DNA of 64,000 nucleotides from NCBI GenBank assembly GCA_043228905.1, contig JBHGNT010000018.1:9548001-9612000 (forward strand), in the 5' to 3' direction. Positions 1,554 through 60,168 of the stretch are shown here, piece after piece (within the stretch, counting starts at the first letter, position 1; each line of letters opens with the position of its first letter). The notes beneath the pieces are model-generated. The model searched no databases. It was not told where the DNA came from and was given only the letters and a program-made list of their open reading frames with translations. The translations under genes and the position numbers were made by a program. Source of the DNA: Azolla caroliniana (taxonomy: Eukaryota > Plantae > Polypodiophyta).

Positions 1554-1569
1554 GACGGTAACACAGAAA

Positions 1570-5643: not shown

Positions 5644-5653
5644 AGGGGGAGTT

Positions 5654-8417: not shown

Positions 8418-9121
8418 TGTCGTAGTGTATTCCACACACTACGTGAAAACCATAAAATAATATATCCGAATTTAGATACATATAAATAAATAAATAATAT
8501 ATCAAAAGAATTTATCACGTGCATAGGGCAAGATTCAAACCATGCACCTCCACGTAGATAAACCCCAACTTTACCATTGTAATAACTTATCTTTAGTGTT
8601 ATAAATATAGATTTAATACGTATAAGACCTTTATTTACACATACCTTTATTAAAAGGTAAAAATCATGTATTCTTTAGAGTGTGAATATTTTATTTACAC
8701 GTGACATTAAAAGTGACTCATGCACGTCTAGCGTGCACGAGCCCTATATTTAGGAAATGACAAAACATCACATGCACATTTAGTGTGCATGGGCACTTTA
8801 GGTGAAAAAGCATGAAGCCATGCTTAGCCTCTTCCTTCTTTATATAAGGAGGAGAAAAATATGTATATGGTTGTTGATTAATATAGAAGAATTGATCAAT
8901 CTAATAGATTCGGGGGATTCACGAATTTTGCCATCTAATTGCTCTAATAATCTAAATATTGTTTTAATTACACTAAACTCGTGGGATTCACGAGGTTACT
9001 ATCTTACTTCTCTTCCTATTATTCATAACTAGCCTTAAGTTGTATTCCTCTTCCTCCTAGTCCAAAACCTTGGCGGTTCCCACCCGACTCATGCAACGAT
9101 CCGGAGCCGAAGGGCACGACA
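8418..9121 (+). repeat. Gypsy A 3' LTR
   Basis: TGTCGT...ACGACA termini directly after the PPT; homologous to the solo LTR at 59118-59908. Confidence 0.92.
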
Positions 9122-9655
9122 ACGCAATCGTCGGATCTTGTTGATCGCCGTCCTGATGTTGTCAGTATCTTCGAAGCAGGCTTTAAACTCGCTAATAAAG
9201 TCTTCAAAGTTATTAAGCAAGGGAGATTGATTTTCTAAAAGCGGAGCGAACCTTGCAGAGGCTAAGCCGCTAAGCAACATGCTTATTAAGCCTACTTGGG
9301 ATGCCTCAATGGGGTATCGGGAAGGATGCATCTGAATGACTAAACGTACCTGATTATGGAATCCTCTGAATTGTGATCGTGTTCCATCAAATTTCACAGG
9401 AAGTCCAATCTTGGGCTCTTTATGAAGTCCTTGGGGACTTGATCCCTGTTGTTGCAATGCTACGATGGTTGCTTCGAGTTGTTGCACACGTAACGCTAAC
9501 TCCCCATGTTGCTGCGTTTGCTGTTTTTCTAAAGTGATTTATTGAAGATCCCCTAACAGTCGTTGGTTTTCTTGTCCCAATGCAACAATTTTTTCTTTTA
9601 GACACTAAATCTCGGAAAAAACGGGTTGATATTCTTGGGCGCTAACATTAGCCAT
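9122..9655 (-). pseudogene. gag: 5' part of gag of a Tcn1/Tf1-type Gypsy, cut by the Gypsy A insertion
   Basis: EPKIGLPVKFDGTRSQFRGF...LLSG..WF-like retrotransposon gag; paralogous to 23145-24146; probable ATG at 9655. Confidence 0.82.
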
Positions 9656-9726
9656 AGTATTGGAAAAAGGGGTAAGAGGATGAGGGAAACTGAAAAGAAG
9701 ACGAGAGGGAGAAAATCGATTCAAAC

Positions 9727-9832
9727 TGTTAGGAACAATACTAAGACAAAGAAGGAATTAGTACTAAAAGATGAGGATTAATACTAAGGGAGGTGTAGAA
9801 CTCTCGAGAGAAGGAAAGAGTGAATGAGATAG

Positions 9833-9892
<60 letters not shown>

Positions 9893-10786
9893 GTTTCGTG
9901 CTAAGGTGTTTCTTTGGCGTGTGATTGTTGGTGGGTTGCCATTGGCGATGGATTTAAAACGGCGAAATATTTCAAATGGGACATGTTTTTTTTGCACGGT
10001 GGTTGAGGAAGATGCCAGACATAGGTTCATTACATGTCCGGTTGCTAAAGCCATTTGGGTGGTTATATCACAAATTTGGGCATCGATAATAGGCAATATT
10101 TTGTCACCTTTTAATTGGCTTTTTATTGATGACGATAAAGGCATGCTTGCACCATCATATAAGATCGTGTTTGACTACCTTAGGTATTGGGGGATGTGGT
10201 TTAATTGGACCATGAGAAATGTGTTCTTGTTTGATGGACTTCATGGGGTAACACAACAACTTCGTAGGATGAGAGGGAAATTGATGTGGCAATTTTCGCA
10301 ACTATGTTCTTTGGGGGCATTGTCCCGAGAGGAGATAGAGGTATGCCATCTAGTTTTGCAACACTTGAGAGGGTTTCCCATGCATTATGACTACTCATGA
10401 TGTAGTGAAGATACCAAGGGTTGTATTATCATCTTGTTTTAATAACAAAACATTGATTTATGAAAAAAAGAAAAAAAAGAAAAGAGAGAGAGAGAGAGAG
10501 AATGATGATAACAAAATATATATATTATGTTAAGAGAATATACAATAGTAGCTAGTGTTGAACCAATTTGGTTCGAAATAATGCCTTGTGCCTCCTTTTA
10601 TAGTGTTCTCAGGAGTACTCCTGAAGTTTCTAGAATGTTCTAGAGAAATCCGGAATATACATCAATTTTTTATAGTAAAACTTAAATGAAAATAATATTT
10701 TTTATATTACAACATATAGTCTAATGGTCAAGAGCTCAACCAATGTAACATAAGGTCATGGGTTCGAGTCTTGTCATATCATGACA
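9727..10786 (-). repeat. LTR of the Tcn1-type chromovirus, containing a LINE insertion
   Basis: Minus strand TGTCATG...CCTAACA; follows PPT AGGAGGATAG; TATA (CTATAAAAGG) near 10600; followed by a GTTTG PBS-like sequence and gag. Confidence 0.72.
9892..10482 (+). mobile_element. 5'-truncated L1-like LINE fragment (zf-RVT domain, 3' UTR, A-rich tail)
   Basis: ORF 9906-10400: KVFLWR..LP...CFFC...EEDARHRFITCPVAKAIW (zf-RVT); A-rich tail 10463-10482; (AG)n on both sides. Confidence 0.82.
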
Positions 10787-11721
10787 CTATCCTCCTTTTA
10801 AAACGACGAGTGTGACGAGTTGTTTGGATTGAGGACCCGGTTTGTCTGGATATTGACGATAGAAGTCTTGAAGACCACAAGCATTATTAGTCACATTCTC
10901 TATTGGTTCCCAAGTACGCTCGTTGGGACTATATCCTAACCAATCGATTAAATAGTAGAGCTTGTTGCAAATAATCTTGGAATCGAGGATGGCAGCAACC
11001 TCATAGTCAGATCGATCTTCAAGTTGGATCGGGGGTGGAGGTTGTTTAATATGACCTGAGATGGTGTTGTCTTGATAGGGTTCGAGGAGAGAACTATGAA
11101 ACACCGGATGTATCCGAAGTTGTGGAGGTAGATTGAGACGAAAAGCGACTTCATTAATTTTTCCAATAATACGGAAAGGACCTAATGGCCGATAATCCAA
11201 CTTCTCGCATGGGCGAGTAGTATTAATGTGTCGTCGTAGTAGCCATACCTGATCTCCAATGTTAAAATTGGATGGAAGCCGATGATGATCCGCGTAAACC
11301 TTGTGTGTTTGTTGAGCTTGCTGTAGATGAGTAGATAAATATGCTTGTATCTTGCGTAACCGCTCCAAATGATCCTTTGCGCAAGGATTTGTGGGTAACT
11401 CTGGGGTTTCAAATACACACCACCGGGGATGACAACCCGTATAAGCATAAAATGGTGTAACCTTTGTCGATGAGTGGACAGAGTTATTCTATGCAAATTC
11501 GGCGAAGTGGAGAATATCCGCCCAATTATCTTGATGATAGCTTAGATAGCACCGAAGATACTACTCCGGCGTTTGATTTGTTTGTTCTGCTTGGCTGTCT
11601 GTTTGTGGGTGGTAGCCGGGGGAGAGGTTACAAGTGACCTTGAGCATTTTAAAGAGGTGCTTCTAGAATTTCGAGACAAACTAGGGTCCACGATTGTTAA
11701 TGATACTATAGAGAAGGACAT

Positions 11722-12176
11722 TATTAGAGATCTAAGTACTAACGTAATCTTAAGATAAGGATAAAGAAATGATAGATAGAAAGGAGAAAGAGAAAGAAGG
11801 GTGCCGATCCACCCGACCACCCCCGAGCGAAGGGATCGAGACGGACTCGAGCCTCAATCGGCGTCCCATACCACCACCGTGGCGTCGAGTCGTAACTGGT
11901 GCTGGCGCGCTCGCTACAAGAGTTGACCCACCACAAGAGCAGAGTCTCGATGTAGTCAAAAGATAATCAAATGAGGGTAGCTATGCCTCTTATTTATAGC
12001 AATACCCAAGGCCCCCAGGCAAGTTCACACTTGACCTAATGGGTTGTCTCAATCCTGAGGATTAAAAGTAATCCTCCCCTTCTTTACACTCTCGTTTAAC
12101 CCTCACACTTATCCACGTGTATAGAATACTACGGTAAATTCTCACCACAGGATATTAAATTGTCATGCCCGTAACA
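11722..12176 (-). repeat. 3' LTR of chromovirus C
   Basis: Direct repeat of 18279-18733, adjacent to the PPT. Confidence 0.93.
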
Positions 12177-15100
12177 TACTCCCCCTCTTTAAAACATTGC
12201 ACTCTTGCAATGGAAAGTTAGGGAAATTAGTTCTGAGAGTATTTTCGCGTTCCCATGTGACATCTTTTATTGATTTATCTATCCATTTTATTTTAAATTC
12301 TCGGATTTCTTTAGTACGTAATTTTTTTGTTTTAACATCGAGAATTCTTTCTGGTACATGTGGTTTAGAAGATAATGCTTCAGAAGTAACCAAAGTTTCA
12401 GTTGTAACTGTATTGTCGCCAGAACCTAGAAGTTCTTTTAAACAACTCACATGAAGGACTGGATGAATGCCGACACCATCGGGAAGAGCGAGACGATAGG
12501 CTGATGACCCAATGCGTTTGAGGACTGTAAAAGGTCCACAAAACCGTGGGGCTAACTTAGCGCACTTACCCGTAGACAATGTCTTAGAATTGTGAGGTAC
12601 ACGTAAAAATACCTTCTATCCAGGGTTGAATACACGAGGTTGCCTATGATGATCGGCATAAAAATGCGCTCTATCTTGAGCTGTTTTTATATTATCTCGT
12701 GCAATATGCAACATATCTTGCATATCCCGAAGAAAGTTTTGCGTACTTCGCAACTCATCATGATGTATATTAACATCAATCGGGGCTCGTGGCTGAAAAC
12801 CATACATCAACATAAAAGGACTATATCCTGTCGACGTATGCTTAGAGCTGTTATAAGCAAACTCCAAAATTGGGAGATAACGTTCCCATTTTGTTGGTTT
12901 TGCACCAACGTATGCTCGAAGCATGTCCTCAATAATTTGATTTACTCATTCTGTCTGTCCATCGGATTGAGGATGATCCGTGGAGCTCATGCTCAACGTA
13001 GTTTCTAACTTCTTCAAGACTTGCGTCCAGAAGTCACTAGTAAACTTTGGATCTCGATCACTCACGATATCCATCGGTAACCCATAAAAACGAAACAATT
13101 CGTCAACGAATTGGTAAGCCAATTCAGAAGCTGTTACCGTGGTTTTAGTAGCAATAAATCTGGCCATTTTAGTTAGTCGATCAACGACAACCCAGATGGC
13201 ATCATGACCTTTTTGGGTGCGAGGAAGGCTAACAATAAAATCCATGGATATACTTTCCCACTTATTATTGGGAATGTCCAAGGGATGTAAAAGTCTTGCG
13301 GCTTTAAGTCGCTCGGCTTTGTTAACCTGACACTGGTGACATTTAGTCACATAGCTATGTATGTCAGGACGCATCTTAGGCCAATAAAATTGAGTGGAGA
13401 TAAGAACGAGTGTATGATGTATTCCAGGGTGCCCTGCTGAGGGTGCATCATGGCATTCAAAAAGAATCCTCTTTTTGACCTCGGGTAAATCTGGAACACA
13501 AACCTTCCCATTACGGTAGAGCAAACCGTTAGCAATGTGGAAGTATTCCTTCGAGGATGTGGTGGTGTCTGTTCCAGACTCAACTCTTGCCCAGTATTTT
13601 GCAAAATAACTGTCATCAGGATACTTTCCCCAAAGGTGATCATAAAGATCTGATGTTATTTCAGTGAAGCTAAGCATGTTAACTTCACGGATGCGACTTA
13701 GTGCATCAGCGACAGTGTTCATGGAACCTTTACGATATCGTATGGAAAAATCAAAGTCCTGGATGAGATCAGCCCATCGTGCCTTACGACCTTTCAGGTC
13801 TTGTTGGTCACAAAAATATTTCAAGGACTCGTGGTTCGTAGTTACCACAAAGTGATTTCCATAAAGATAATGGCGCCATGTTTTGAGCGCATGTATAACT
13901 GCAAATAATTCCTTTTCTTGAACGGGATACCGACATTGAGCAGAATCAAGTTTCTTACTCTCAAATGCTATTGGTTTACCATCTTGATACAAGACAACAC
14001 CTATAGCATAATCACTTGCATCGGTTTCAACCTCAAAAGGTTTTGAAGGATTAGGTAAAAGAAGTGAAGGAGCCTTGCAAACCAGGTCCTTGAGTTCCTT
14101 AAAGGCGAGGTCTAGTGTAGCATCCCACACAATAGGTTTTGTAGACTTACGCGTTTGACCTTTTAAAAGATCAGTAAACGACGTTGTCAATTGGGAGTAA
14201 TTACGAAGAGACTTTCGCAAAAACCCGACAAAACCAAGGAATGATCGAACTTCTCGAATATTCCGAAGAGTGGGCCAAAGCTTGATTTTCTCAATGCGAG
14301 AAGGATCAATTTCAACTCCTCGTTCAGTTATGAGATGTCCTAGATAAGTAATTGATTTCTTGAAGAACTAACATTTTGAGATCTTTGCATAAAACTGTTT
14401 GTCACGCAATGTTTGTAAAACAAAGCGGACATGTCTAGCATGTTCTTGTAATGTACGGCTATAAACTAAAATATCATCCAAGAAAATAACGACAAATTTT
14501 TCAAGTTGTTTTCGGAAAATGTCATTCATTTCTTGTTGAAAAGTAGCCGGAGCATTGGTCAAACCAAAAGGCATAACCAAAAACTTGTAATGGCCATAGC
14601 GCGTACGAAATGCCGTTTTAGGAACATCATCCTCACTTATTCGTATTTGATGGTAGCCAGTACGGAGATCAAGTTTCGTAAAATACCGAGCTCCTTGGAG
14701 ATGGTCAATTAGATCGTCAGCCCGAGGCAATGGGTACGAATTCTTGATTGTCACTTTATTCAAGCGTCGGTAATTAATACACATACGCCATGTGCCCTCT
14801 TTCTTTTTAACCAAGAGAACTGGTGCACCCCATGGAGATTTACTATAACGTATATAACCCATTCGTAAATAGTCCTTGAGTTGTTTAGATACCTCATCTT
14901 CTTCGGATCAACTTAAGCGATACGGAGGTATACTTATTGGTGCAACACCAGGTACAATATCTATACGATGGTCTATATTACGTTTAGGAGGTAACCCATC
15001 AGGTAGTTCACTTGGAAAAACATCATGAAAATCATTTAAGATTTCATCAAGTTGTTGTTGTTCAAAATATGTTAATTGAACCGGGACATTATCGATATTG

Positions 15101-16596
15101 CAAATGTGAATGTCCGGATCAAGTACACAATAAAATAACGTAGAACAAGACAACTCGGATATTGATGGACACGAGGAAACAATCGAGAGGGATTGTTTTT
15201 TTACACATTGAATAAAATGCGTACAATCGTTTAGTACAAAAGAAATGGAATGACGAACGCAATCAATAAATAAAGAAGAGTTTTTATTATAAAACTAGGG
15301 ATAACCCAGTATTACATCAGTGGTACAAAGATTCATTACATGGAAGTCTACTTCCTCTATATAAGTATCAATAGAAATTCCTAATGAATGAATCGCCCCA
15401 TTGATGTATTGTACTCTTCCATCAGCCAAGTGCACAGTGTAGGTGTGATCACTTACGGTGGGTTGGATTCCCCATATCTGAACCAAACGATCATTCACAA
15501 AATTGTGTGAGCTTCCCGAATCAAATAAAAATTGTACGGGAGATCCATTGATATACCCGTTTGCACGTAGTAAATCATTGGGACCCAATACATAGTGAGG
15601 GAAAGAACATTGACAATTACTTAAATGATGTGTATAGACCTGAAGGACATTAGGAATTTGACCTTTATGGTCTGCAGCTTTAGCTTTGTTGTCGTGCTCT
15701 TTCCGTTCGAGCTTTCGACATTGATCTTTTGTATGAACCTTCTTTTTGCAGAATACACAAAAAGGATGTTGTCGCTTACAATCGCGATCCAGGAATTCGT
15801 TGGGTGTCTTGCGTTTCCCAACAAATTGCGACTGCTTAGTCCCGGGCGCTTCGTTGGGTTTGTTATGGTCCTTCTTCGAAGTGCGTTGATAGCGAAGAAC
15901 TATTTCAATGGCCTCTTCAAAGGATTTTGGATCCTTATCGTGCACTATCCAGTGATAGTCCGAATTGGGGATGCCATTGACAAAACAAGCTATTAACCAA
16001 ATTTCCCCTTCTAGACCCGATTTTTGGATTTGGGTTCTAGCATGGTGAACATAGTCTTCTAGCGAGGAAAATTTCTTGCTAGAGAGGTTCATTAAAGCTT
16101 GTGTTGCCTCGGTTCGAGAGGGAGGTTGTAGAAATTGGCCCTTAAAAACCGTGACAAAATCTGTCCAGGTATCGGGCAATTTCCCCATAGTACGGAGCCC
16201 ACGCCACCAGGCGGTGGCCTTACCCCCGAGTTCTCAGCCGACATATGCAATCTTCGTACTATCTGGTGTGGGATAGACCTCAAAATGAGACTCCCATCGT
16301 CCCAACCATGTGCAGATTACTTCTTCGGTTCTTTCCTTTTTGTCTCCGGTAAATGGCTTAACGACAAATGATGGTTCACCTTGTCGCTCATCAAGTCTAT
16401 TAGTCTCACGTTGTAGACTAATGACACGTGCCTCAAGAGCACTCTGAGATTGCCGAAGTTCGGTCATCTATTGAGCGGTGAAACTAAGGTATTGGGTTAT
16501 TTGTGCCAAATACATCTCAGTGGACATTTGTCTAGGAGGATTCCCTTGAGTTCCTTCCGCTTGAGCAGATGACATCGGGTTGTTAATTTGAGCCAT
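12177..16596 (-). pseudogene. gag-pol: gag-pol of chromovirus C (gag, protease, RT, RNase H, integrase, chromodomain), with stops and frameshifts
   Basis: [72 protein letters not shown]...KW...TWE. Confidence 0.9.
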
Positions 16597-18278
16597 TAAA
16601 GATTATTTCTGGAAAAGAAATAGGATAAAGTCAGAGAGATAGTCATAACATCATGTCGTGATGTAAACATATCATGGGCAAACATTAATTGATATCATGA
16701 TCTCACGTCAATACCCCTCTAGACGTATGAGATGAGGTTCAAGATCAGGTTACTATGGTAACACAAAGGTGTTTTAAAAACCATGGGGGTGACAAATAAA
16801 TGTCTTTCCCTGATCACTATATCGATTTTTTCATGGTGGCTCCCCGAGGCTCAACCATGTATGTTCGCGTCATGAATAGTTTATACACGAAAAAAATGTT
16901 AACAATAAACTATGTTTCGGTGCCCACATATGTGGTTTCGGCTCTTTAAGTCCTATTACGAGGACCCAGAGGTGCACTTAGACCTTAAGTCTAAACATGT
17001 GTTATAGTCATATGTATCAAGGATGTTGTATGGTCTTGGTCATATTTGAACTCGAGACCTCGAGAACAAATACATTAAACACTTGAGCCAACCAAGTAAG
17101 TTGCTCTTCTTGAATGCTTAATGTTTGATGCGTATAAGAGATATGCGAGATCATATATGTTTTTTCTAAAAAGAACATATATTTCAATGGTCCTTATTTC
17201 GCCCTCATTTACCAAAACTATGTTGGTATGTTACCTAACCTCAAGTCTCGTAATTACGATGGCATACGCCAAATTGCAACCTAATGGTCAAGCCAAATGA
17301 GCCTTTGTTTCGTAGTAGGCCCACGTGGCCCATCACATGGTCACGTCATTACGAATGCCTCTCGTAAGAACGAGCTCATGGTGGCATCGTATCCATGTAA
17401 CGAGGGAGGGATGTTGGATACGTGCGTCATTGGAGCAACCTCACTTGAAGTGGGTCAAGCCCTACGTACTCAACATCATTATGGCTATTGGCGTTTCTTT
17501 ACGTAACGAAATCAAGGTCATCAACGGGGTTGTCAACAATAAAAAATTGTTGAAAAAGGGATGGTGACAACGCCATTCTCACAAAAATGTGAGGACGGCC
17601 ACCAACATCCTTTTCCCGACAAGGACAACTTTAGATATAATCACGTAATAACGAATATACACATATGTTTACTTATCACATATATACGATCAAATACGTA
17701 TATATGTGACCACATATGCCTATATTAAACATATCGTTATATTAAATAGCCACAAATGATGTGATCGAGATACGTAATCGAGGTATATACCTCTAGGCAC
17801 ACGAAACATCCACAAATAAGAGATCATCGTAATACGCAATTGAGGTATTGACCTCTTACGCATACGAGACCAACCGCATATCGTTTACAACAAATCAAGG
17901 TATTAAACTCATAGGCAAACGTAACATATGTTCGTGAACGTAATACGTAATTGAGGTATTAACCTCGTACACATACGACACTCATCACATATTATTAATA
18001 TGTCAAACAAGGTATTGACATCGTGCACATATGTAAACGTTTTAGATAATCAATTAAAGACCACTACAACATCATTGACTCAATGAAAAAAAATGACATA
18101 TAAACTAAACACATGATTAGATGGGAGAAGAGAGAATAGAAAAAATTTCTGGAAAGAGTTACCGAAGTTCTTTGTTGATCGTTGTCTGGATCAAGGCCGA
18201 CCGCACATCGATCGATCACCATCAATCAAAAGACAAATGAAAAACAAAGAAACATTAGTACATAAATCTGATACCAAA

Positions 18279-18733
18279 TATTAGAGATCTAAGTACTAAC
18301 ATAAGCTTAAGATAAGGCTAAAGAAATGATAGATAGAAAGGAGAAAGAGAAAGAAGGGTGCCGATCCACCCGACCACCCCCAAGCGAAGGGATCGAGATG
18401 GACTCGAGCCTCAATCGGCGTCCCATACCACCGTCGTGGCGTCGAGTCGTACCTGGTGCTGGCGCGCTCGCTACAAGAGTTGACCCACCACAAGAGCAAA
18501 GTCTCGATGTAGTCAAAAGATGATCAAATGAGGGTAGCTACGCCTCTTATTTATAGCGATACGCAAGGGCCCCAGGCAAGTTCACACTTGACCTAATGGG
18601 TTGTCTCAATCCTGAGGATTAAAAGTAATCCTCCCCTTCTTTACACTCTCGTTTAACCCTCACACTTATCCACGTGTATAGAATACTACAGTAAATTCTC
18701 ACCACGGGATATTAAATTATCATGCCCGTAACA
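18279..18733 (-). repeat. 5' LTR of chromovirus C
   Basis: Direct repeat of 11722-12176; PBS immediately internal. Confidence 0.93.
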
Positions 18734-21359: not shown

Positions 21360-23144
21360 TGTCACGGACACACCAAGTGTGGACTAAGACGGAGCACGGA
21401 TGATGAGGTTACGACGGAGAGATGACGGAATGACACAAGGGCATAAAGATAGAGATGAAGATTAAGGAGAGAAGATGGGCGAAACGGGAATACTAGATTG
21501 ATATGTCCATGACTGGCGTTGTTCACCTGGAATTCCTTCAAGGTGAACTCAACTATTTATACTAAGTGGCATGCATACCTGTTGCACACATGTGATACAA
21601 TAGAGCATGTAGGCAGTAGGTACGCATGCATGTGCCAAGTGTTAATAATACAAGGGAGAAATTATGCACATGATGCTAGCTAAAACCTACAATGAGGAAG
21701 TATATACATGATTATATGCTAGATGTGTGGTTAACACATAATATTTGATTATAACATGGTCATGTCAAGAGTTCGAATCTTGACATTATCCCCCCTTCAA
21801 CGATGTCTTCCCAAATCGTTTGTCGGCTTAAGGGGATATTGTTGATGAAAATCTTAGATCACCTCCAAAGTATTTTGTAAATCCTAGACAAGGAGTAACC
21901 CTTCCACAAGACGAGGTATTTAACACCAACGGGCATGAGCAACCATGTGTGGTCCTCGCCTAGAATTGGAACACAAATATCAACGGGTGTGAGCGACCAT
22001 GTGCGGTCCTCACGGGGAGCATGAACACCAAGGGGCATGAGTAACCATGTGAGGTCCTTGCCGGGAACTGGAACGGTCCTCGATGAGAGTTGGAACACGA
22101 ACACCAACGGGCGTGAGCAACCATGTTGTCCTCACCGAGAAATGGAACACGAACGAGTGAGTGACCATGTGGCCCTCACCGGGAACAAGAACACGAATGG
22201 GAGTAATCGACCATGTGTGGTCCTCACCGGGAACTGGAACATGAACAACAACGGGCATGAGCGACCATGTTGGTCCTCATCGGGATCTAGAACACGAACA
22301 ATAGTTGGAGTGAGCGGTCATGTGCGGTCCTCACCGGAGACTGGAACACGAACGGGAATGAGTGACCATGCGGCCCTCACCGGGAACAGGAACACGAACG
22401 GGAGTGAGCCACCATGTGCGGCCCTCACTAGGAACAAGAACACGAACGGACCATGCGGCCCTCACCGGGAACTCGAACACGAACGGGCGTGAGCGACCAT
22501 GCGGCCCTCACCGGGAACTGGAACACGAACACCAGCGGGAGTGAGCGGCCTTGTGCGGACCTCACCGGGAACTGGAACATGAACACCAACAGGAAAGAAA
22601 CTAAAAAATAGAGACAATGAAGCGATGTTGCTGATGGTACGATGACAATGGTAACTCTAGAAGCAAGGGTGATGACGAAGACGAGTGATGCTTCTAGTTG
22701 GAAGGTGAACAAACTGTCACGGACACACCAAGTGCGGACTAAGACGGAGCACGGATGATGAGACTACGACGGAGAGATGATGGAATGACACAAGAGCATA
22801 AAGATAGAGATGAAGATTAAGGAGAGAAGATGGGCGAAATGGGAATACTAGATTGATATGTCCATGATTGGCGTTGTTCACCTTGAATTCCTTCAAGGTG
22901 AACTCAACTATTTATACTAAGTGGCATGCATACCTGTTGCACGCATGTGATACAATAGAGCATGTAGGCAGTAGGTACGCACGCACGCATGTGCCAAGTG
23001 TTAATAATACAAGGGAGAAATTATGCACATGATGCTAGCTAAAACCTACAATGAGGAAGTATATACATGATTATATGCTAGATGTGTGGTTAACACATAA
23101 CACTCGATTATAACATGGTCATGTCAAGAGTTCAAATCTTGACA
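21360..23144 (-). mobile_element. Non-autonomous LTR element (TRIM-like) with a minisatellite interior
   Basis: LTRs at 21360-21785 and 22715-23144 (TGTCA...TGACA), PPT GAAGGGGGGATAA, no retroviral domains; imperfect TSD (GGCTC/TTCTC). Confidence 0.88.
21925..22595. repeat. Imperfect minisatellite with units of about 35-55 bp
   Basis: Recurrent GACCATGTGCGGTCCTCACCGGGAACTGGAACACGAAC variants. Confidence 0.88.
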
Positions 23145-24146: not shown

Positions 24147-24720
24147 TGTCGTGACGTTTCCATGCCACGATGAGAAAATAGCTTCTACCAATTTATATGA
24201 GCTTATTCAAATCTTTGTCAAAGGTTATATAAAGTGCGAGACCTCAATGAATAGGAGCGTCTGGGGGTTTAGGGGTCGTGAAGGATTTGCTTCACAATAG
24301 AAAAATAAACTAAAATATTGTATTGAATAACATTTGAGAGACTTGAACCCACAACCTCACATACCAAACATGAAAGCTCAAATGCGTGGGATGTCTATCA
24401 TGCATCACATATAATGCGTGAACGTCAAATGGCGATCATGCATGATGCATGTTTTGTACCCTCACATGCATCATATGAATGGGGGCACCTATTTAAAGAG
24501 GGAAAGGGAAAAGAGTGAGGGGAGAGCATGAGACGAGGAATATTATTGTAATAGGAGGGACAAGGTATATTATTGTACAAGAAATATTTTGTAATCATCT
24601 TCAAATATCAATACAAGTTATTTCTTTTTCTCCTCTTTCTTTGACAAGAAGCCCGGTGCTTACTTCCCGGATTCATGATTTTCTTTTCGTTTTCTCTCGT
24701 ACGCCTAGATCGACGCGACA
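24147..24720 (+). repeat. 5' LTR of Gypsy D
   Basis: Inverted termini, TATA-like TATTTAAAG near 24490, PBS follows. Confidence 0.85.
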
Positions 24721-24721
24721 G

Positions 24722-24738
24722 TGGTGAACCCAACGTGA
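24722..24738 (+). promoter_or_regulatory. Primer-binding site, tRNA-Trp-like
   Basis: TGGTGAACCCAACGTGA, near-complement of the plant tRNA-Trp 3' end as I recall it. Confidence 0.7.
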
Positions 24739-24739
24739 A

Positions 24740-35609: not shown

Positions 35610-35964
35610 AAAACCCTCCAACATTTTCTACAAACTCCTTGTATACCCCTCCGTTACTTTCTAATATTCCCCAACCTAACCCCCTTCCCCCTTTTTGTAA
35701 TGACCCCCACCCATATTTTCCCCCCAACACTTTGTATAATTCTGGTCTTTCCCCTCCCCCTATTTCTAACACATCCCCCTCCCCCCCTAATATCTTCACA
35801 CACTCCCTCTCCTTTCTTAATAATTCCACACATGCACCCTCCCCCCCCCTATTCTCATATAATTTGAAAAATAACCCCTCCCTATTTACATATAATACCC
35901 CTCCCCTTTTTCCTAAGTCTAACAAACTAAAACTCTGTCTTATACATGTAGACCAAAAAACGGG

Positions 35965-36409
35965 TGTTAGCCGGCTGGCAAGGGAAGTCCAGAATGGGAA
36001 AAGGGGGATAATTAATAACCGGGAGCTGATTATCTATAATATTTAGAAGGATATTTTGAGAAGCGAACGGACGGATCGGAATCGGTATGCCGATCCAGAT
36101 CCGGACCGGTTCGTAGCCGGTTGCCGGTTGGCACCGGTTTGTACTTAGAATCGAGGACCTATAAAAGGGCCCAGTTAGATTGTAATCATTAGTGGATAAT
36201 TAATAAAGTGTTGTTGTTCTATATCTTAACCAGTGTTAATTACCGTTCTGTGCTACGTGTGTATTGTGATTAATGATCTTGCCGATTAGTAACCACTTAG
36301 GGTTTCATTAATACTTCGGTCTAAGTTTATCTCACTGCAAGACCCCTTTGGTGAAGTGTCTCAAAGGGACACCCTGTGTTAGGGCATTGTCCGGCCCCTA
36401 GCGATAACA
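35965..36409 (+). repeat. 5' LTR of Gypsy E
   Basis: Direct repeat of 45474-45932; CTATAAAAGGG TATA box. Confidence 0.93.
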
Positions 36410-36451
36410 CAGTTTTTGGTGACCACGGTTCCTCCACAACGGCAGGAATGG

Positions 36452-51932: not shown

Positions 51933-52005
51933 GCACTTGTAGCTCAGTGGATAGAGCGTCTGTTTCCTAAGCAGAAGGCCGAAGGTTCGACCCCTTCCTA
52001 GTGCG
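51933..52005 (+). tRNA. trnR-CCT: tRNA-Arg(CCT)
   Basis: Identical to consensus. Confidence 0.88.
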
Positions 52006-52329
52006 ATTGAAACCACGATCTTTCATTTCCGTTGTATTCTTTTATGTGTGGCGGATCGACGTTTACCTCCAACAAATACAAAACTCTAACGACGTATTAT
52101 ATTTAAAGGATTTACCATGCAAGCAAAATTATAAACTGTGATGGGTCCCACGTGACCAAGAGGAATGAGGTATTTTGCAATTAGAGACTACGATAGAGGT
52201 TCAGTATTTCCTAAAAAATCGATTGTGCTGATTAATTTGTGACCTATAATTAGCCATTTCACATACATTGATTATATATTCACCAATTCAAAGGCATTGT
52301 TTAGTAATTAGAAAAATTAGAAAGATGTG

Positions 52330-52402
52330 GCACTTGTAGCTCAGTGGATAGAGCGTCTGTTTCCTAAGCAGAAGGCCGAAGGTTCGACCCCTTCCTAGTG
52401 CG
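52330..52402 (+). tRNA. trnR-CCT: tRNA-Arg(CCT)
   Basis: Identical to consensus. Confidence 0.88.
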
Positions 52403-52843
52403 ATTGAAAAACCGATTATTTATTTCCGTTGGATTCTTTTACGTGTGGCGGATCGACGTTTACCTACAACAAATGCAAAACTCTAGCGAGGTATTATATT
52501 TTAAGGATTTACCATGCAAGCAAAAACATAAACTGTCATGGGTCCCAAGTGACCAAGAGGAATGAGGAATTTTGCAATTAGAGACTACGATAGAGGTTCA
52601 GTATCTCCTAAAAAATTGATTGTGTTGATTAATTTGTGACCTATAATTAGCCATTTCACATACATTGATTATATATTCGCCAATTTAGAGGCATTCTTTA
52701 GTAATTAAAAAAATTAGTAGAATAGTGCACCATTTCTTTTAGATCCAATATTGTGCCATTGTAGATCAGTAGATAGACAGTCTGTTTCCTAACACTATTA
52801 AGATACTTCACATTCTTGGTTTCGGATAGTGAAAATCAAATTT

Positions 52844-52916
52844 GCACTTGTAGCTCAGTGGATAGAGCGTCTGTTTCCTAAGCAGAAGGCCGAAGGTTCG
52901 ACCCCTTCCTAGTGCG
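52844..52916 (+). tRNA. trnR-CCT: tRNA-Arg(CCT)
   Basis: Identical to consensus. Confidence 0.88.
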
Positions 52917-53240
52917 ATTGAAACCACGATCTTTCATTTCCGTTGTATTCTTTTATGTGTGGCGGATCGACGTTTACCTCCAACAAATACAAAACTCTAA
53001 CGACGTATTATATTTAAAGGATTTACCATGCAAGCAAAATTATAAACTGTGATGGGTCTCACGTGACCAAGAGGAATGAGGTATTTTGCAATTAGAGACT
53101 ACGATAGAGGTTCAGTATTTCCTAAAAAATCGATTGTGCTGATTAATTTGTAACCTATAATTAGCCATTTCACATACATTGATTATATATTCACCAATTC
53201 AAAGGCATTATTTAGTAATTAGAAAAATTAGAAAGATGTG

Positions 53241-53313
53241 GCACTTGTAGCTCAGTGGATAGAGCATCTGTTTCCTAAGCAGAAGGCCGAAGGTTCGACC
53301 CCTTCCTAGTGCG
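53241..53313 (+). tRNA. trnR-CCT: tRNA-Arg(CCT), G26A variant
   Basis: Same as 51420. Confidence 0.84.
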
Positions 53314-53753
53314 ATTGAAAAACCGATCATTTATTTCCGTTGGATTCTTTTACGTGTGGCGGATCGATGTTTACCTACAACAAATGCAAAACTATAGCGA
53401 GGTATTATATTTTAAGTATTTACCATGCAAGCAAAAACATAAACTGTCATGGGTCCCAAGTGACCAAGAGGAATGAGGAATTTTGCAATTAGAGACTACG
53501 ATAGAGGTTCAGTATCTCCTAAAAAATTGATTGTGTTGATTAATTTGGGACCTATAATTAGCCATTTCACATACATTGATTATATATTCGCCAATTTAGA
53601 GGCATTCTTTAGTAATTAAAAAAATTAGTAGAATAGTGGACCATTTCTTTTAGATGCAATATTGTGCCATTGTAGATCAGTAGATAGACCGTCTGTTTCC
53701 TACACTACTAAGATACTTCACATTCTTGGTTTCGGATAGTGAAAATCAAATTT

Positions 53754-53826
53754 GCACTTGTAGCTCAGTGGATAGAGCGTCTGTTTCCTAAGCAGAAGGC
53801 CGAAGGTTCGACCCCTTCCTAGTGCG
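53754..53826 (+). tRNA. trnR-CCT: tRNA-Arg(CCT)
   Basis: Identical to consensus. Confidence 0.88.
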
Positions 53827-54150
53827 ATTGAAACCACGATCTTTCATTTCCGTTGTATTCTTTTATGTGTGGCGGATCGACGTTTACCTCCAACAAATAC
53901 AAAACTCTAACGACGTATTATATTTAAAGGATTTACCATGCAAGCAAAATTATAAACTGTGATGGGTCCCACGTGACCAAGAGGAATGAGGTATTTTGCA
54001 ATTAGAGACTACGATAGAGGTTCAGTATTTCCTAAAAAATCGATTGTGCTGATTAATTTGTGACCTATAATTAGCCATTTCACATACATTGATTATATAT
54101 TCACCAATTCAAAGGCATTGTTTAGTAATTAGAAAAATTAGAAAGATGTG

Positions 54151-54223
54151 GCACTTGTAGCTCAGTGGATAGAGCGTCTGTTTCCTAAGCAGAAGGCCGA
54201 AGGTTCGACCCCTTCCTAGTGCG
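54151..54223 (+). tRNA. trnR-CCT: tRNA-Arg(CCT)
   Basis: Identical to consensus. Confidence 0.88.
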
Positions 54224-54664
54224 ATTGAAAAACCGATTATTTATTTCCGTTGGATTCTTTTACGTGTGGCGGATCGACGTTTACCTACAACAAATGCAAA
54301 ACTCTAGCGAGGTATTATATTTTAAGGATTTACCATGCAAGCAAAAACATAAACTGTCATGGGTCCCAAGTGACCAAGAGGAATGAGGAATTTTGCAATT
54401 AGAGACTACGATAGAGGTTCAGTATCTCCTAAAAAATTGATTGTGTTGATTAATTTGTGACCTATAATTAGCCATTTCACATACATTGATTATATATTCG
54501 CCAATTTAGAGGCATTCTTTAGTAATTAAAAAAATTAGTAGAATAGTGCACCATTTCTTTTAGATCCAATATTGTGCCATTGTAGATCAGTAGATAGACA
54601 GTCTGTTTCCTAACACTATTAAGATACTTCACATTCTTGGTTTCGGATAGTGAAAATCAAATTT

Positions 54665-54737
54665 GCACTTGTAGCTCAGTGGATAGAGCGTCTGTTTCCT
54701 AAGCAGAAGGCCGAAGGTTCGACCCCTTCCTAGTGCG
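54665..54737 (+). tRNA. trnR-CCT: tRNA-Arg(CCT)
   Basis: Identical to consensus. Confidence 0.88.
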
Positions 54738-55061
54738 ATTGAAACCACGATCTTTCATTTCCGTTGTATTCTTTTATGTGTGGCGGATCGACGTTTACCT
54801 CCAACAAATACAAAACTCTAACGACGTATTATATTTAAAGGATTTACCATGCAAGCAAAATTATAAACTGTGATGGGTCTCACGTGACCAAGAGGAATGA
54901 GGTATTTTGCAATTAGAGACTACGATAGAGGTTCAGTATTTCCTAAAAAATCGATTGTGCTGATTAATTTGTAACCTATAATTAGCCATTTCACATACAT
55001 TGATTATATATTCACCAATTCAAAGGCATTATTTAGTAATTAGAAAAATTAGAAAGATGTG

Positions 55062-55134
55062 GCACTTGTAGCTCAGTGGATAGAGCATCTGTTTCCTAAG
55101 CAGAAGGCCGAAGGTTCGACCCCTTCCTAGTGCG
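55062..55134 (+). tRNA. trnR-CCT: tRNA-Arg(CCT), G26A variant
   Basis: Same as 51420. Confidence 0.84.
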
Positions 55135-55574
55135 ATTGAAAAACCGATCATTTATTTCCGTTGGATTCTTTTACGTGTGGCGGATCGATGTTTACCTACA
55201 ACAAATGCAAAACTATAGCGAGGTATTATATTTTAAGTATTTACCATGCAAGCAAAAACATAAACTGTCATGGGTCCCAAGTGACCAAGAGGAATGAGGA
55301 ATTTTGCAATTAGAGACTACGATAGAGGTTCAGTATCTCCTAAAAAATTGATTGTGTTGATTAATTTGGGACCTATAATTAGCCATTTCACATACATTGA
55401 TTATATATTCGCCAATTTAGAGGCATTCTTTAGTAATTAAAAAAATTAGTAGAATAGTGGACCATTTCTTTTAGACGCAATATTGTGCCATTGTAGATCA
55501 GTAGATAGACCGTCTGTTTCCTACACTACTAAGATACTTCACATTCTTGGTTTCGGATAGTGAAAATCAAATTT

Positions 55575-55647
55575 GCACTTGTAGCTCAGTGGATAGAGCG
55601 TCTGTTTCCTAAGCAGAAGGCCGAAGGTTCGACCCCTTCCTAGTGCG
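55575..55647 (+). tRNA. trnR-CCT: tRNA-Arg(CCT)
   Basis: Identical to consensus. Confidence 0.88.
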
Positions 55648-55971
55648 ATTGAAACCACGATCTTTCATTTCCGTTGTATTCTTTTATGTGTGGCGGATCG
55701 ACGTTTACCTCCAACAAATACAAAACTCTAACGACGTATTATATTTAAAGGATTTACCATGCAAGCAAAATTATAAACTGTGATGGGTCCCACGTGACCA
55801 AGAGGAATGAGGTATTTTGCAATTAGAGACTACGATAGAGGTTCAGTATTTCCTAAAAAATCGATTGTGCTGATTAATTTGTGACCTATAATTAGCCATT
55901 TCACATACATTGATTATATATTCACCAATTCAAAGGCATTGTTTAGTAATTAGAAAAATTAGAAAGATGTG

Positions 55972-56044
55972 GCACTTGTAGCTCAGTGGATAGAGCGTCT
56001 GTTTCCTAAGCAGAAGGCCGAAGGTTCGACCCCTTCCTAGTGCG
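55972..56044 (+). tRNA. trnR-CCT: tRNA-Arg(CCT)
   Basis: Identical to consensus. Confidence 0.88.
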
Positions 56045-56485
56045 ATTGAAAAACCGATTATTTATTTCCGTTGGATTCTTTTACGTGTGGCGGATCGACG
56101 TTTACCTACAACAAATGCAAAACTCTAGCGAGGTATTATATTTTAAGGATTTACCATGCAAGCAAAAACATAAACTGTCATGGGTCCCAAGTGACCAAGA
56201 GGAATGAGGAATTTTGCAATTAGAGACTACGATAGAGGTTCAGTATCTCCAAAAAAATTGATTGTGTTGATTAATTTGTGACCTATAATTAGCCATTTCA
56301 CATACATTGATTATATATTCGCCAATTTAGAGGCATTCTTTAGTAATTAAAAAAATTAGTAGAATAGTGCACCATTTCTTTTAGATCCAATATTGTGCCA
56401 TTGTAGATCAGTAGATAGACAGTCTGTTTCCTAACACTACTAAGATACTTCACATTCTTGGTTTCGGATAGTGAAAATCAAATTT

Positions 56486-56558
56486 GCACTTGTAGCTCAG
56501 TGGATAGAGCGTCTGTTTCCTAAGCAGAAGGCCGAAGGTTCGACCCCTTCCTAGTGCG
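56486..56558 (+). tRNA. trnR-CCT: tRNA-Arg(CCT)
   Basis: Identical to consensus. Confidence 0.88.
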
Positions 56559-56882
56559 ATTGAAACCACGATCTTTCATTTCCGTTGTATTCTTTTATGT
56601 GTGGCGGATCGACGTTTACCTCCAACAAATACAAAACTCTAACAACGTATTATATTTAAAGGATTTACCATGCAAGCAAAATTATAAACTGTGATGGGTC
56701 CCACGTGACCAAGAGGAATGAGGTATTTTGCAATTAGAGACTACGATAGAGGTTCAGTATTTCCTAAAAAATCGATTGTGCTAATTAATTTGTAACCTAT
56801 AATTAGCCATTTCACATACATTGATTATATATTCACCAATTCAAAGGCATTGTTTAGTAATTAGAAAAATTAGAAAGATGTG

Positions 56883-56955
56883 GCACTTGTAGCTCAGTGG
56901 ATAGAGCGTCTGTTTCCTAAGCAGAAGGCCGAAATTTTGACCCCTTCCTAGTGCG
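56883..56955 (+). pseudogene. tRNA-Arg(CCT) pseudogene (B box destroyed)
   Basis: GAAATTTTGACC in place of GAAGGTTCGACC. Confidence 0.75.
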
Positions 56956-57712
56956 ATTGAAACAACGATCATTTATTTCCGTTGCATTCTTTTATGTGTG
57001 GCGGATAGATGTTTACCTACAACAAATGCAAAACTCTAGCGACGTATTATATATTAAGGATTTATCATGCAAGCAAAAACATATACTGTGATGGGTCCCA
57101 AGTGACCAAGAGGAATGAGGTATTTTGCAATTAGAGACTACGATAGAGGTTCAGTATTTCCTAAGAAATCGATTGTGGAGATTAATTTGTGACCTATAAT
57201 TAGCCATTTCACATACATTGATTATATATTAGCCAATTCAGAGGTATTGATTAGTAATTTGAAAAATTAGTAGAATAGTGGACCATTTCGTTTAGATCCA
57301 ATATTTGGCCATTGTAGTTCACTACATAGACCGTCTGTTTCCTAACACTACTAAGATAGTTCACATTCCAGTATTAGGATAGTGAATTCAAATTTGCATA
57401 AACTAGTGGTGGCATTAGACCCAACAAATGCAAAACTCTAACGATGTATTATACGTTAACGGCTTACCATAGAATCAAAAAATCTTAGTGTGATGGGTGG
57501 TCCTCAGTGACCAAAATAAATGAGGTATTTTGCATTTACACTGACCTATAGATGTTCAATACTTCCTTAAAAATTAATTAAGACGATTTATTTCTCAGCT
57601 TTAACTAAGCTTTTGACATACATTGATTATTTATTCCCCAATTGATAGTCATTACATAGGAAGTAGAGAAAATCATATGATAGTCTACTCTTTGTTTACG
57701 TGAAAAGATCTG

Positions 57713-57785
57713 GCACTTGTAGCTCAGTGGATAGAGCGTCTGTTTCCTAAGCAGAAGGCCGAAGGTTCAACCCATTCCTAGTGCG
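57713..57785 (+). tRNA. trnR-CCT: tRNA-Arg(CCT), T-arm variant (possibly a pseudogene)
   Basis: GGTTCAACCCATTCC; one T-stem mismatch. Confidence 0.55.
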
Positions 57786-58542
57786 ATTGAAACAACAATC
57801 ATTTATTTCCGTGGTATTCTTTTATGTGTGGCCGATCGAGGTTTACCCACAACAAATGCAAAACTCTAGCGACGTATTATATATTACGGATTTACCATGC
57901 AAGCAAAAACATATACTGTGATGGGTCCCAAGTGACCAAGAGGAATGAGGTATTTTGCAATTAGAGACTACGATAGAGGTTCAGTATTTCCTAAGAAATC
58001 GATTGTGGAGATTAATTTGTGACCTATAATTAGCCATTTCACATACATTGATTATATATTAGCCAATTCAGAGGTATTGATTAGTAATTTGAAAAATTAG
58101 TAGAATAGTGGACCATTTCGTTTAGATCCAATATTTGGCCATTGTAGTTCACTACATAGACCGTCTGTTTCCTAACACTACTAAGATAGTTCACATTCCA
58201 GTATTAGGATAGTGAATTCAAATTTGCATAAACTAGTGGTGGCATTAGACCCAACAAATGCAAAACTCTAACGATGTATTATACGTTAACGGCTTACCAT
58301 TGAATCAAAAACTCATAGTGTGATGGGTGGTCCTGAGCGACCAAAATGAATGAGGTATTTCGCATTTACACTGATCTATAGATGTTCAATACTTCCTTAA
58401 AAATTAATTAAGACGATTTATTTGTAAGCTATAACTAAGCTTTTCACATACATTGATTATTTATTCCCCAATTGATAGTCATTACAAAGGAAGTAGAGAA
58501 AATCAAATGATAGTAGACTCTTTGTTTTCGTGAAAAGATCTG

Positions 58543-58615
58543 GCACTTGTAGCTCAGTGGATAGAGCGTCTGTTTCCTAAGCAGAAGGCCGAAGGTTCGA
58601 CCCGTTCCTAGTGCG
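58543..58615 (+). tRNA. trnR-CCT: tRNA-Arg(CCT), T-stem variant (possibly a pseudogene)
   Basis: GGTTCGACCCGTTCC; one T-stem mismatch. Confidence 0.6.
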
Positions 58616-59117
58616 ATTGAAACAACGATCATTTATTTCCGTTGTATTCTTTTATGTGTGGCGGATCGACGTTTACCCACAACAAATGCAAAACTCTAGC
58701 GACGTAATATATATTAAGGATTTACCATGCAAGCAAACACATATACTGTGATGGGTCCCAAGTTACCAAGAGGAATGAGGTATTTTGCAATTAGAGACTA
58801 CGATAGAGGTTCAGTATTTCCTGAAAAATCGATTGTGCTGATTAATTTGTGACCTATAATTAGCCATTTCACATGCATTGATTATATATTCGCCATTTCA
58901 GAGGTATTGATTAGGAATTAAAAAAATTAGTAGAATAGTGGAGCATTTCTTTTAGATCCAATATTTGGCCATTGTAGTTCAGTGGATAGACCGTCTTTTT
59001 GCTAACACTACTAAGATACTTCACATTCTTGTATTAGGATAGTGAATTCAAATTTGCATAAACTAGTGGTGGCATTTAGACCCAACAAATGCAAAAGTCT
59101 AACTATGTATTATACGT

Positions 59118-59908
59118 TGTCGTAGTGTATTTCGTACACTACGTGAAAAAGTAAAAATAATATAACCGATTTAATTACATATAAATAAATAAAATAAAAT
59201 ATCAAGATATTTATCACGTGCATAGGGCAAGATTCGAACCATGTACCTCCACATAGCCAAACTTCAACTTTACCATTATGCTACCTTATCTTTAGTGTTC
59301 TATAAATAGATTTAATAACTATAAGTGCTTTATTTGCGCCTACCTTTATTAAAAAGGTAAATCATGCATTTTTAGAGTGCGTGAATATTTTATAGAAAAA
59401 CGCAAGCAACTAAAAAGTGACTCATGCACATCTAGCGTGCATGAGCACTATATTTAGCAAATAAAAGCAAGGATTAAAAAAGCATCACATGCACATTTAG
59501 TGTGCATGAACATATTAGAAAAAAAAGCATGTAGCTATGCTTAGTCTCTCCCATCACTACATAAGGATGGGGAGCACAATGTAATAGGCGTGTGAAATAT
59601 TTGGAAATTGGATATATTTCCGAAAACACCAACCGATTAATATAATCGTGGGATTCACGAAAATAATATAATCTATACTTGTGGGATTCACAAGTTTCTT
59701 ATATCTTTCTTTCAATCTAAATACATATTCTTACCTAAATATTGACTAAATATACTAAACTCATGGGATTCACGAGATTCTTATCTTATAACTCTTTCTT
59801 ACAACATATTTATATTCTTATTAGCCTTAAAACTCTCCTCTTCCTAGTCCAAAACCCCAGCGGTTTCCACCCGACTCACGCAACGATCCGGAGCCGAAAG
59901 GCACGACA
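59118..59908 (+). mobile_element. Solo LTR of the Gypsy A family inserted in the satellite
   Basis: TGTCGTAGTGTATT...GGCACGACA, homologous to 8418-9121; 4-bp TSD ACGT (59114-59117 and 59909-59912). Confidence 0.93.
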
Positions 59909-60168
59909 ACGTTAATGGCTTATCATGGAATCAAAAACTCATAGTCTGATGGGTGTTCCTGAGTGACGAAAATGAATGAGGTATTTTGCATTTACACTGA
60001 CCTATAGATGTTCAATACTTCCTTAAAAATTAAGTAAGACGATTTATTTGTCAGCTATAACTAAGCTTTTCACATACATTGATTATTTATTCCCCAATTG
60101 ATAGTAATTACAAAGGAAGTAGAGAAAATTATATGATAGTAGACTCTTTGTTTTCGTGAAAAGATTTG

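Follow-up and report, generated by a model that had tools for sequence, protein, structure and literature searches.

Antisense tRNA-type A/B box cassettes in the U3 of two Gypsy lineages of Azolla caroliniana as putative TFIIIC sites

Two Gypsy lineages in the genome of Azolla caroliniana carry, in the U3 of their LTRs, an apparently tRNA-derived pair of A and B boxes in antisense orientation. Judging from what is conserved in it, this cassette is likely kept as a putative TFIIIC site that may keep an outward-pointing Pol III promoter open, roughly a nucleosome's length upstream of the Pol II TATA box, a reading to which we assign a probability of roughly one in two. Because the cassette points away from the element, it is not the element's own promoter. 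The elements described here lie in a window of 64,000 nucleotides (contig JBHGNT010000018.1, positions 9,548,001 to 9,612,000). All box motifs cited in a preliminary description of this window were found at the positions given there, with two corrections, which concern the loss of the A box in family D and the kinship of the families. Every cassette in the window is antisense to its element and in U3, as had been proposed, and lies 5' of the TATA-like box of the LTR.

Family A is represented by a solo LTR (59118..59908, plus strand) with a 4-bp target site duplication, ACGT, within a tRNA-Arg array. Its antisense cassette (59230..59283, minus strand) consists of the A box TAGCATAATGG (59283-59273), the variable-loop motif AGGT and the B box GGTTCGAATCT, which starts at 59240. 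The spacing is 43, and a T4 run lies approximately 24 nt past the B box. An autonomous-type Phygy-like element of a subfamily of A has its 3' LTR at 8418..9121 (plus strand); the cassette in this LTR (8531..8584, minus strand, boxes at 8584 and 8541) also has spacing 43, and its B box shows the substitution C56>T. Chromovirus B has a 3' LTR at 10470..10786 (minus strand), which starts at 10786 directly after the PPT and whose far end is approximate. Its cassette (10717..10770, plus strand) has the A box at 10717-10727 and the B box at 10761-10770, with spacing 44 and 17 nt between the B box and the LTR 5' end. Element C (21360..23144, minus strand) is a 1.8-kb non-autonomous derivative with LTRs at 22715-23144 and 21360-21785. 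Both LTRs hold a variant cassette with spacing 50, at 21720..21779 (3' LTR, plus strand, boxes at 21720 and 21770, A box without A14) and at 23079..23138 (5' LTR, plus strand, boxes at 23079 and 23129); the B box of the 3' LTR lies within a near-palindrome at the LTR end. The tRNA-like spacing first reported thus holds for A (43) and B (44), but not for C. Family D has an LTR at 24274..24720 (plus strand) with the B box at 24339..24349 (minus strand) as its only box. D had been described as having a B box only, which is correct for the window copy, where an internal deletion of about 80 nt took out the A box, but not for other genomic copies, in which an A box lies 43 nt from the B box. The pol domains are present in B, D and the element at 8418, while non-autonomous copies of A are about 3 kb long. 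The cassettes are mostly found in coding elements of 5-8 kb.

The families in the window had been called unrelated, but they fall into two Gypsy lineages. A tRNA-Trp PBS and one integrase clade are common to A and D, which we call Phygy-like from the absence of a chromodomain, the NCGN target site and the non-Met tRNA primer, the clade being named by these features without reference Phygy sequences. The PBS of D (24722..24739, plus strand) complements the 3' end of the host tRNA-Trp with one mismatch. B and C are Tcn1-like, a name likewise given by features, without reference Tcn1 sequences in the tree: a chromodomain follows the integrase, and self-priming replaces the tRNA PBS. Self-priming complements of 12, 12 and 10 nt, about 32 nt past the TATA box, were found in three of four B elements, and only 7 nt in the fourth. 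The corresponding site of C (22702..22712, minus strand) is an 11-nt complement of a stretch 32 nt past the LTR TATA box. A chromodomain remnant precedes the PPT in C, which is a deletion derivative within the Tcn1-like lineage. The integrase tree is a quick, midpoint-rooted tree without reference sequences. The Tcn1 clade is described as having a chromodomain, self-priming and occurrence in mosses and clubmosses, and the Phygy clade as non-chromoviral with an NCGN target (Neumann 2019, PMC6317226; Novikova 2010, PMC2864245). With two lineages, at most about two captures are needed, followed by inheritance and some losses.

The cassette is more widespread than the four families of the window. 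The exact A+B pattern gave 2456 + 2433 = 4,889 matches genome-wide versus 0 + 0 in the control. In positions 1-30200 of the window there are 3 A+B pairs versus 0.01 expected (0 of 100 shuffles), whereas B boxes alone are not beyond chance there (5 versus 2.2 expected). Other genome tiles (800 kb) hold 40 pairs, versus 0, 0, 0, 0 and 1 in five shuffles. The most abundant cassette variant, which may resemble the head of the plant Au SINE, appears to be LTR-borne, as suggested by its relatives L276 and L062. With counts anchored on integrase ends and blind to the motif, an antisense cassette was found downstream of 18 of 25 Tcn1-like integrase ends, versus 0 of 10 chromovirus-E ends and 2 of 65 Copia ends, both of the latter being 2-mismatch matches with spacings of 48 and 51. 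In other samples, 40 of the 69 loci of Tcn1-like relatives with at least 200 nt past the integrase end have the antisense cassette and none has it in sense; the carriers range down to 53% identity to the query. It is absent from all 18 more distant Tcn1-like loci of a second collection, and no relative was found in viral contigs. The orientation is antisense in all assigned cases. Lineage F and one Phygy subclade are without the cassette. That successful families, these two as well as chromovirus E and the 18 distant Tcn1-like loci, do without it counts against the role proposed for it.

The evidence for selection comes from the comparison between families. In 38 family-level cassettes the boxes, the variable-loop AGGT and the 43/44-nt spacing are kept, while the spacer sequence and the cloverleaf pairing are lost. 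This combination points to a selected, DNA-level Pol III promoter, in line with the earlier proposal of a tRNA-type cassette antisense in U3 that is read by a DNA-binding factor. Part of the constancy of the spacing is built into the pattern filters. This does not apply to an A-blind test anchored on the B box, in which 13 of 20 family representatives had TGG plus T/A/C at a spacing of 43/44, 4 of the 20 being anchored on a wrong B-like site, and no other spacing occurred more than once. Moreover, the copies of family D were collected with a query that had no A box, and still every position of this box is conserved in 22 or more of 25 copies. AGGT at tRNA positions 44-47, which was never a selection criterion, is present in 30 of the 38 family-level cassettes versus 2 of 11 host tRNAs. 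Stem pairing in the cassettes is at the level of column shuffles (acceptor 0.38, D 0.57, anticodon 0.44 and T 0.60), versus 0.91-1.00 in host tRNAs, and neither ARAGORN nor Rfam called a tRNA at the cassettes of the window. Spacer identity between families is about 0.36, versus 0.26-0.28 in shuffled sequences. The spacing is mostly 44 in Tcn1-like (18/25) and 43 in Phygy-like cassettes (11/13), within the 30-67 bp of type 2 Pol III promoters. TFIIIC is reported to read the bases of the B box directly and to tolerate A-B distances of 30-67 bp (PMC11811891); therefore TFIIIC alone does not explain a spacing of 43/44.

The preliminary description had also expected the boxes to be better kept than their flanks in young copies, and within families they are not. 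In five families the mismatch per base was 0.041 in the box core, 0.046 in the spacer and 0.058-0.081 in the flanks, with no significant excess conservation, and shared versus singleton alleles did not differ between box core and rest (Fisher p 0.65); the signal is seen only between families. The within-family test has low power, as copies differ mostly by changes that postdate their insertion. C56>T, a damaging change, is present in 5 of 33 copies of A and 7 of 56 copies of B. The decay of B-box CpG relative to that outside is lower in B and higher in A, C and P, with no consistent protection. Thus, most copies do not seem to be protected from methylation.

The position of the cassette suggests how it may act. 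The distance from the B box to the LTR end varies about 70-fold (7-516 nt). Between the A box and the TATA-like box there are 114-274 nt in seven LTRs that were checked, and the median is 175 nt over those representatives (24 of 36) for which a TATA box was called; these TATA boxes are predictions made by regular expression, with two miscalls (L031 and L002). Over the 40 nt that precede the A box, on its upstream side, the AT content is 75-78%, and in plant tRNA genes TFIIIB is reported to be loaded on an AT-rich upstream stretch (PMC13578239). We propose that a tRNA or the head of a tRNA-SINE was captured, probably once per lineage. TFIIIC would bind the B box and load TFIIIB, which would sit on AT-rich DNA lying between the A box and the TATA box. 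Nucleosomes would then be kept sparse at the upstream border of the LTR promoter, and in the few copies that are active this may limit silencing that comes in from the flank, a shielding that the preliminary description had also proposed. A stronger version, in which two distant Gypsy lineages independently acquired a tRNA-type promoter that was turned outward and serves as a mobile TFIIIC barrier at one nucleosome's distance upstream of the Pol II promoter, is tentative, and we would put it at less than even odds. Barrier elements of the animal or yeast type had not been reported in plants according to a 2022 review (PMC9540200). As for the source, a single tRNA was rejected, since the best matches among 15 host tRNA cores are scattered over Thr, Arg, Lys, Pro, Gln and others. 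A common origin of the cassettes of both lineages is disfavoured as well, the cross-lineage spacer identity (0.31) being no higher than that to host tRNAs (0.29-0.34) and the usual spacing differing between the lineages (44 versus 43). Two separate captures, one per lineage, would be the favoured history from these comparisons.

The cassette could instead act in the RNA of the element, where it is complementary to tRNA D and T arms and might pair with the primer tRNA for initiation or minus-strand transfer, like the U3 part of the bipartite PBS of Ty3. Its orientation and U3 position are exactly those required, the U3 of Ty3 is reported to pair with the T and D arms of tRNAi-Met (PMC5371799), and a stretch complementary to tRNA-Lys3 is described in the U3-R of HIV-1 (cited in PMC6468702). 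The spacing of tRNA-Trp also equals the Phygy value of 43, and this tRNA is second of 19 in duplex energy for one Phygy family. However, over five Phygy LTRs it ranks 10, 9, 8, 2 and 14 of 19 (with an incomplete host tRNA set and modifications ignored), the cassettes share with the B-box consensus a purine at position 52, where the host tRNA-Trp has T, and B and C self-prime and so need no tRNA primer. Pairing with the primer tRNA is thus disfavoured, and we consider it unlikely. The cassette might also be no more than a neutral remnant of a tRNA or SINE that was inserted long ago and has since been passed on with the LTR. This would agree with the decay of copies without extra conservation within families and with the loss or alteration of the cassette in several branches, including C. 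Such a remnant would not be expected to leave boxes, AGGT and spacing persisting in two lineages and in other samples while the spacer and the remaining LTR are near-random between families, nor to keep the boxes despite the variable distance to the LTR end, and seems rather improbable.

Two further explanations place the function elsewhere. The product might matter, as a short antisense Pol III RNA from U3 that tunes element expression (double-stranded RNA or siRNA decoy) or enters the flank. An apparently full promoter layout with AT-rich upstream DNA is consistent with this, as are T4 runs, which 10 of 13 Phygy and 14 of 25 Tcn1-like representatives (24/38) have no more than 60 nt from the B box, some of the Tcn1-like runs lying past the LTR end. 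Neither the fold nor the 3' end is conserved, however, and since Tcn1-like LTRs often end 7-66 nt past the B box, the transcripts would vary with the insertion site; we regard this explanation as quite improbable. Even less credible is that the cassette serves as a landing site for integrases that target Pol III, or tethers element cDNA to tRNA-gene sites. The elements of the window do lie in and beside a tRNA array, but the solo LTR of family A is about 500 nt past one tRNA gene and 260 nt ahead of the next, in a Phygy-typical NCGN site. The points upstream of the A box at which homology ends spread over 0-231 nt without a peak (209 cassettes with relatives, 68 of them in unselected tiles), many of them reflecting family divergence; the power of this comparison is lowered because the loci outside the tiles were chosen for intact LTRs.

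Among known systems, Helenus comes closest. Helenus/TRIMp3 (Kojima 2024, PMC10886601) is likewise reported to have tRNA-derived A and B boxes in the LTR, with conservation around the boxes and no functional tRNA, and AGGT in the variable loop is visible by eye in the Helenus consensus LTRs of the supplement, as in the cassettes studied here. In contrast, in the consensus LTRs shown there the Helenus cassette is sense and in the 3' half of the LTR, suited to the transcription of a short non-autonomous element (311-1263 bp for Helenus/TRIMp3; PMC10886601), whereas ours is antisense, in U3 beside a TATA-like box, and mostly in elements with pol domains, C having 1.8 kb. The same source states that "not a few" Repbase LTRs hold tRNA-like parts, its analysis covering TRIMs under 1 kb. 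The Cassandra and Ajax TRIMs also have a Pol III promoter in the LTR, but it is 5S-derived, and in Cassandra it is said to drive the element's own transcript, unlike here (PMC10886601). The bipartite PBS of Ty3 (PMC5371799) and the HIV-1 U3-R stretch (PMC6468702) share tRNA-complementary U3 sequence with the cassettes but match their own primers; here there is no specific primer match and one lineage self-primes. The tDNA and ETC barriers of yeasts and animals are likewise described as TFIIIC sites that border a transcribed domain, although as fixed host loci and unreported in plants, while the cassettes are mobile, putative sites (PMC9540200, PMC13578239). In trypanosomatids, conserved, divergent, non-coding tRNA-like A/B boxes upstream of the U2 snRNA gene are reported to be required by the neighbouring promoter; that neighbour is a Pol III gene (PMC4950102), whereas the cassettes would have a Pol II LTR promoter beside them. 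No mention of Pol III boxes in Tcn1 or Phygy LTRs was found in passages of PMC6317226 and PMC2864245, and a search confined to open-access papers found no description of an antisense U3 A/B cassette.

If the barrier reading is true, the cassette would be an anti-silencing element encoded by a retrotransposon and the first tDNA-type insulator in plants, and thousands of LTRs, not tRNA genes, would supply most TFIIIC sites in the genome. The intact cassettes, at least 4,889 in number, could also titrate TFIIIC, give rise to antisense RNA that runs into flanks, and mislead the annotation of SINEs and tRNA pseudogenes. The system offers a ready test of whether TFIIIC sites are chromatin barriers in plants, which the review cited above gives as unreported (PMC9540200). 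If the cassettes are functional, coding LTR retrotransposons would exploit the Pol III machinery of the host beyond their own transcript or target choice.

All motif positions in the preliminary description were confirmed in the window, and every cassette there, consisting of a tRNA-type A box and B box, lies antisense in U3, 5' of the TATA-like box of its LTR. In the first 30 kb of the window lone B boxes are within chance (5 seen, 2.2 expected), while A+B pairs number 3 against 0.01 expected and were found in none of 100 shuffles. Other genome tiles (800 kb) hold 40 pairs, 38 of them with a spacing of 43-45, against 0-1 in five shuffles. Across the 523 Mb genome the exact A+B pattern has 4,889 matches and the control has 0; the 100 matches listed are, as judged by eye, repeat cassettes, with two that are tRNA/SINE-like. 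The D LTR (24274-24720) had been described as carrying a B box only, but this is due to a deletion in the window copy. Its relatives align as two pieces flanking an 80-nt gap and have an A box at spacing 43. Each position of this A box is conserved in 22 or more of 25 copies, even though the search query contained no A box.

The families had been thought unrelated, but those in the window fall into two Gypsy lineages, Phygy-like and Tcn1-like, clade names that were assigned from features, without reference sequences. The solo LTR A (59118-59908) and D have in common a PBS complementary to host tRNA-Trp; pol DNA of the Phygy-like elements is 67% identical and their integrases form one clade. 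The ACGT target duplication of A fits the NCGN preference reported for Phygy (PMC6317226). B and C are self-priming. Chromovirus B (3' LTR 10470-10786) has a chromodomain, and its four elements have self-priming complements of 12, 12, 10 and 7 nt. The non-autonomous element C (21360-23144) has an 11-nt complement and, preceding the PPT, a chromodomain remnant that matches the Tcn1-like set with a best E of 7e-4; previously taken for a TRIM, it is with its 1.8 kb a Tcn1-like deletion derivative and not a classical TRIM. LTR pairs of family A are often just 2.3-2.7 kb apart, some in tandem with a common LTR (L018/L019, L025-L027, L028/L029), and represent an abundant non-autonomous derivative. 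In family B, the LTR end that carries the cassette is amplified in local tandems of three and four copies (L128:8544-8908, L149:5756-7065).

The window consists of nested LTR retrotransposons adjoining a tandem tRNA-Arg(CCT) array of more than 20 genes (48349-63457 and 32288-34409, continuing into L261-L269), with units of ~397 and ~514 nt and decayed copies at its edges; clusters of other tRNA isotypes occur elsewhere in the genome. The presence of Tcn1-like and Phygy-like elements would suggest a moss or a near relative of mosses (PMC6317226). Three window elements lack the cassette. These are a very young Copia element (779-6414; a single 1383-aa frame, LTR identity 99.9%) that landed within pol of a Phygy-like element, chromovirus E (11722-18736), which is nested in B and has a tRNA-Met-type PBS and a long 5' region, and Gypsy element F (35964-45932; junction near 45455-45473), which has no clear purine tract 5' of the 3' LTR but does have a stretch like a tRNA-Arg 3' end.

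A motif-blind survey covered the 900 nt that follow each coding end, both in the window and in 1.4 Mb of tiles, allowing up to two mismatches. Antisense cassettes follow 18 of 25 Tcn1-like ends (2 sense), none of 10 chromovirus-E ends, 7 of 34 Phygy-query ends (six of these being a distant lineage) and 2 of 65 Copia ends; the 4 sense cassettes after Copia ends are probably from nested neighbours. At 2.6 kb the cassette is present in 13/18 Tcn1-like, 10/27 Phygy and 0/10 lineage-F rows, and the single positive among six E rows is the LTR of B, the host of E in the window. One Phygy subclade yielded not even a degenerate cassette. Among 80 relatives on metagenome contigs, which include near-duplicates and some loci that closely resemble families of this genome, 69 have at least 200 nt, with 40 antisense cassettes and 0 sense. 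By collection these are 40/51 and 0/18, the elements of the second being ~50% identical to the query. Two further cassette-bearing repeat families were not assignable to a lineage (L200:7801, L223:1062, L128:9725, L178:7356). Another cassette variant predominates among the matches listed of 946 genome-wide; it has relatives at L276:5792 and L062, one of which lies antisense where a Tcn1-like LTR begins.

With anchoring on the B box only, 13 of the 20 family representatives have an A-box core at a spacing of 43/44, four of the 20 being mis-anchored, and any other distance occurs at most once. AGGT at tRNA positions 44-47, which was not a selection criterion, occurs in 30 of 38 family-level cassettes, which have spacers <72% alike and were chosen by box and spacing filters; of 11 host tRNAs, 2 have it. 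Spacer identity between families is ~0.36, against 0.26-0.28 when shuffled, and pairing in the four tRNA stems is no higher than in column shuffles (host tRNAs 0.91-1.00). The distance of the B box from the LTR end ranges from 7 to 516 nt. In seven LTRs the A box and the TATA-like box are 114-274 nt apart, and the median distance is 175 nt in the 24 of 36 representatives with a TATA call (two miscalls). The cassette is real and selected between families, and its kept motifs, lost fold and position, which follows the promoter more closely than the LTR end, are what would be expected of a protein-bound DNA element. In C (21762-21785) and one Phygy family (L131:7160-7169) the B box can be read on both strands because it lies within a near-perfect palindrome.

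Cassettes of the two lineages resemble each other no more than they resemble tRNAs, and they differ in their usual spacing, which favours two separate captures, probably one per lineage. A single donor was ruled out, as no one tRNA fits as source. Near position 1510 of L206 and L209 there is a repeat resembling a tRNA or SINE, with A/B boxes and ends that pair, whose homology begins 16 nt 5' of the A box; it is possibly a free-standing relative of the cassette.

Some results speak against function. Conservation above flanks within families was not borne out: when copies were compared in five families, core positions of the boxes showed no significant excess of conservation over spacer and flanks. 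The C56>T change of the B box is common among copies, the CpG of the B box has no consistent protection among them, and abundant families exist without the cassette. Besides, TFIIIC is reported not to require a fixed A-B spacing (PMC11811891). The cassette might pair with the primer tRNA, as in Ty3, and its orientation suits this; self-priming elements are at odds with it, and the tRNA-Trp duplex ranks 10, 9, 8, 2 and 14 of 19 for five Phygy LTRs, so that we consider such pairing unlikely. It is slightly less probable still that the cassette is a neutral relic, and a functional antisense RNA product comes after that. Use as a landing pad is very improbable, since breaks show no peak.

The antisense U3 cassette is a variant of an already known arrangement, the tRNA promoter in an LTR. 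Helenus LTRs (PMC10886601) carry the same kind of cassette, but in sense orientation, in the 3' half of the LTR and in short non-autonomous elements, and two defining features of Helenus are absent here. Literature searches directed at the antisense form brought up no account of it, and such LTR boxes go unmentioned in the available portions of PMC3601003, PMC2864245 and PMC7466625. Nevertheless, Kojima (PMC10886601) notes tRNA-like parts in "not a few" Repbase LTRs, so Repbase entries may already record it. For plants, the available text of PMC9540200 gives tDNA-type barriers as not reported. In Leishmania, divergent tRNA-like boxes have been shown to serve the adjoining promoter (PMC4950102). 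A divergent promoter built on TFIIIC and TFIIIB is the most likely mechanism, with a probability of about 0.5, and we infer both binding and benefit. TFIIIC would bind the B box, and TFIIIB would then be loaded onto the AT-rich stretch (75-78% AT) facing the TATA box. The resulting divergent promoter pair, with its open patch, may aid the LTR promoter in silent surroundings.
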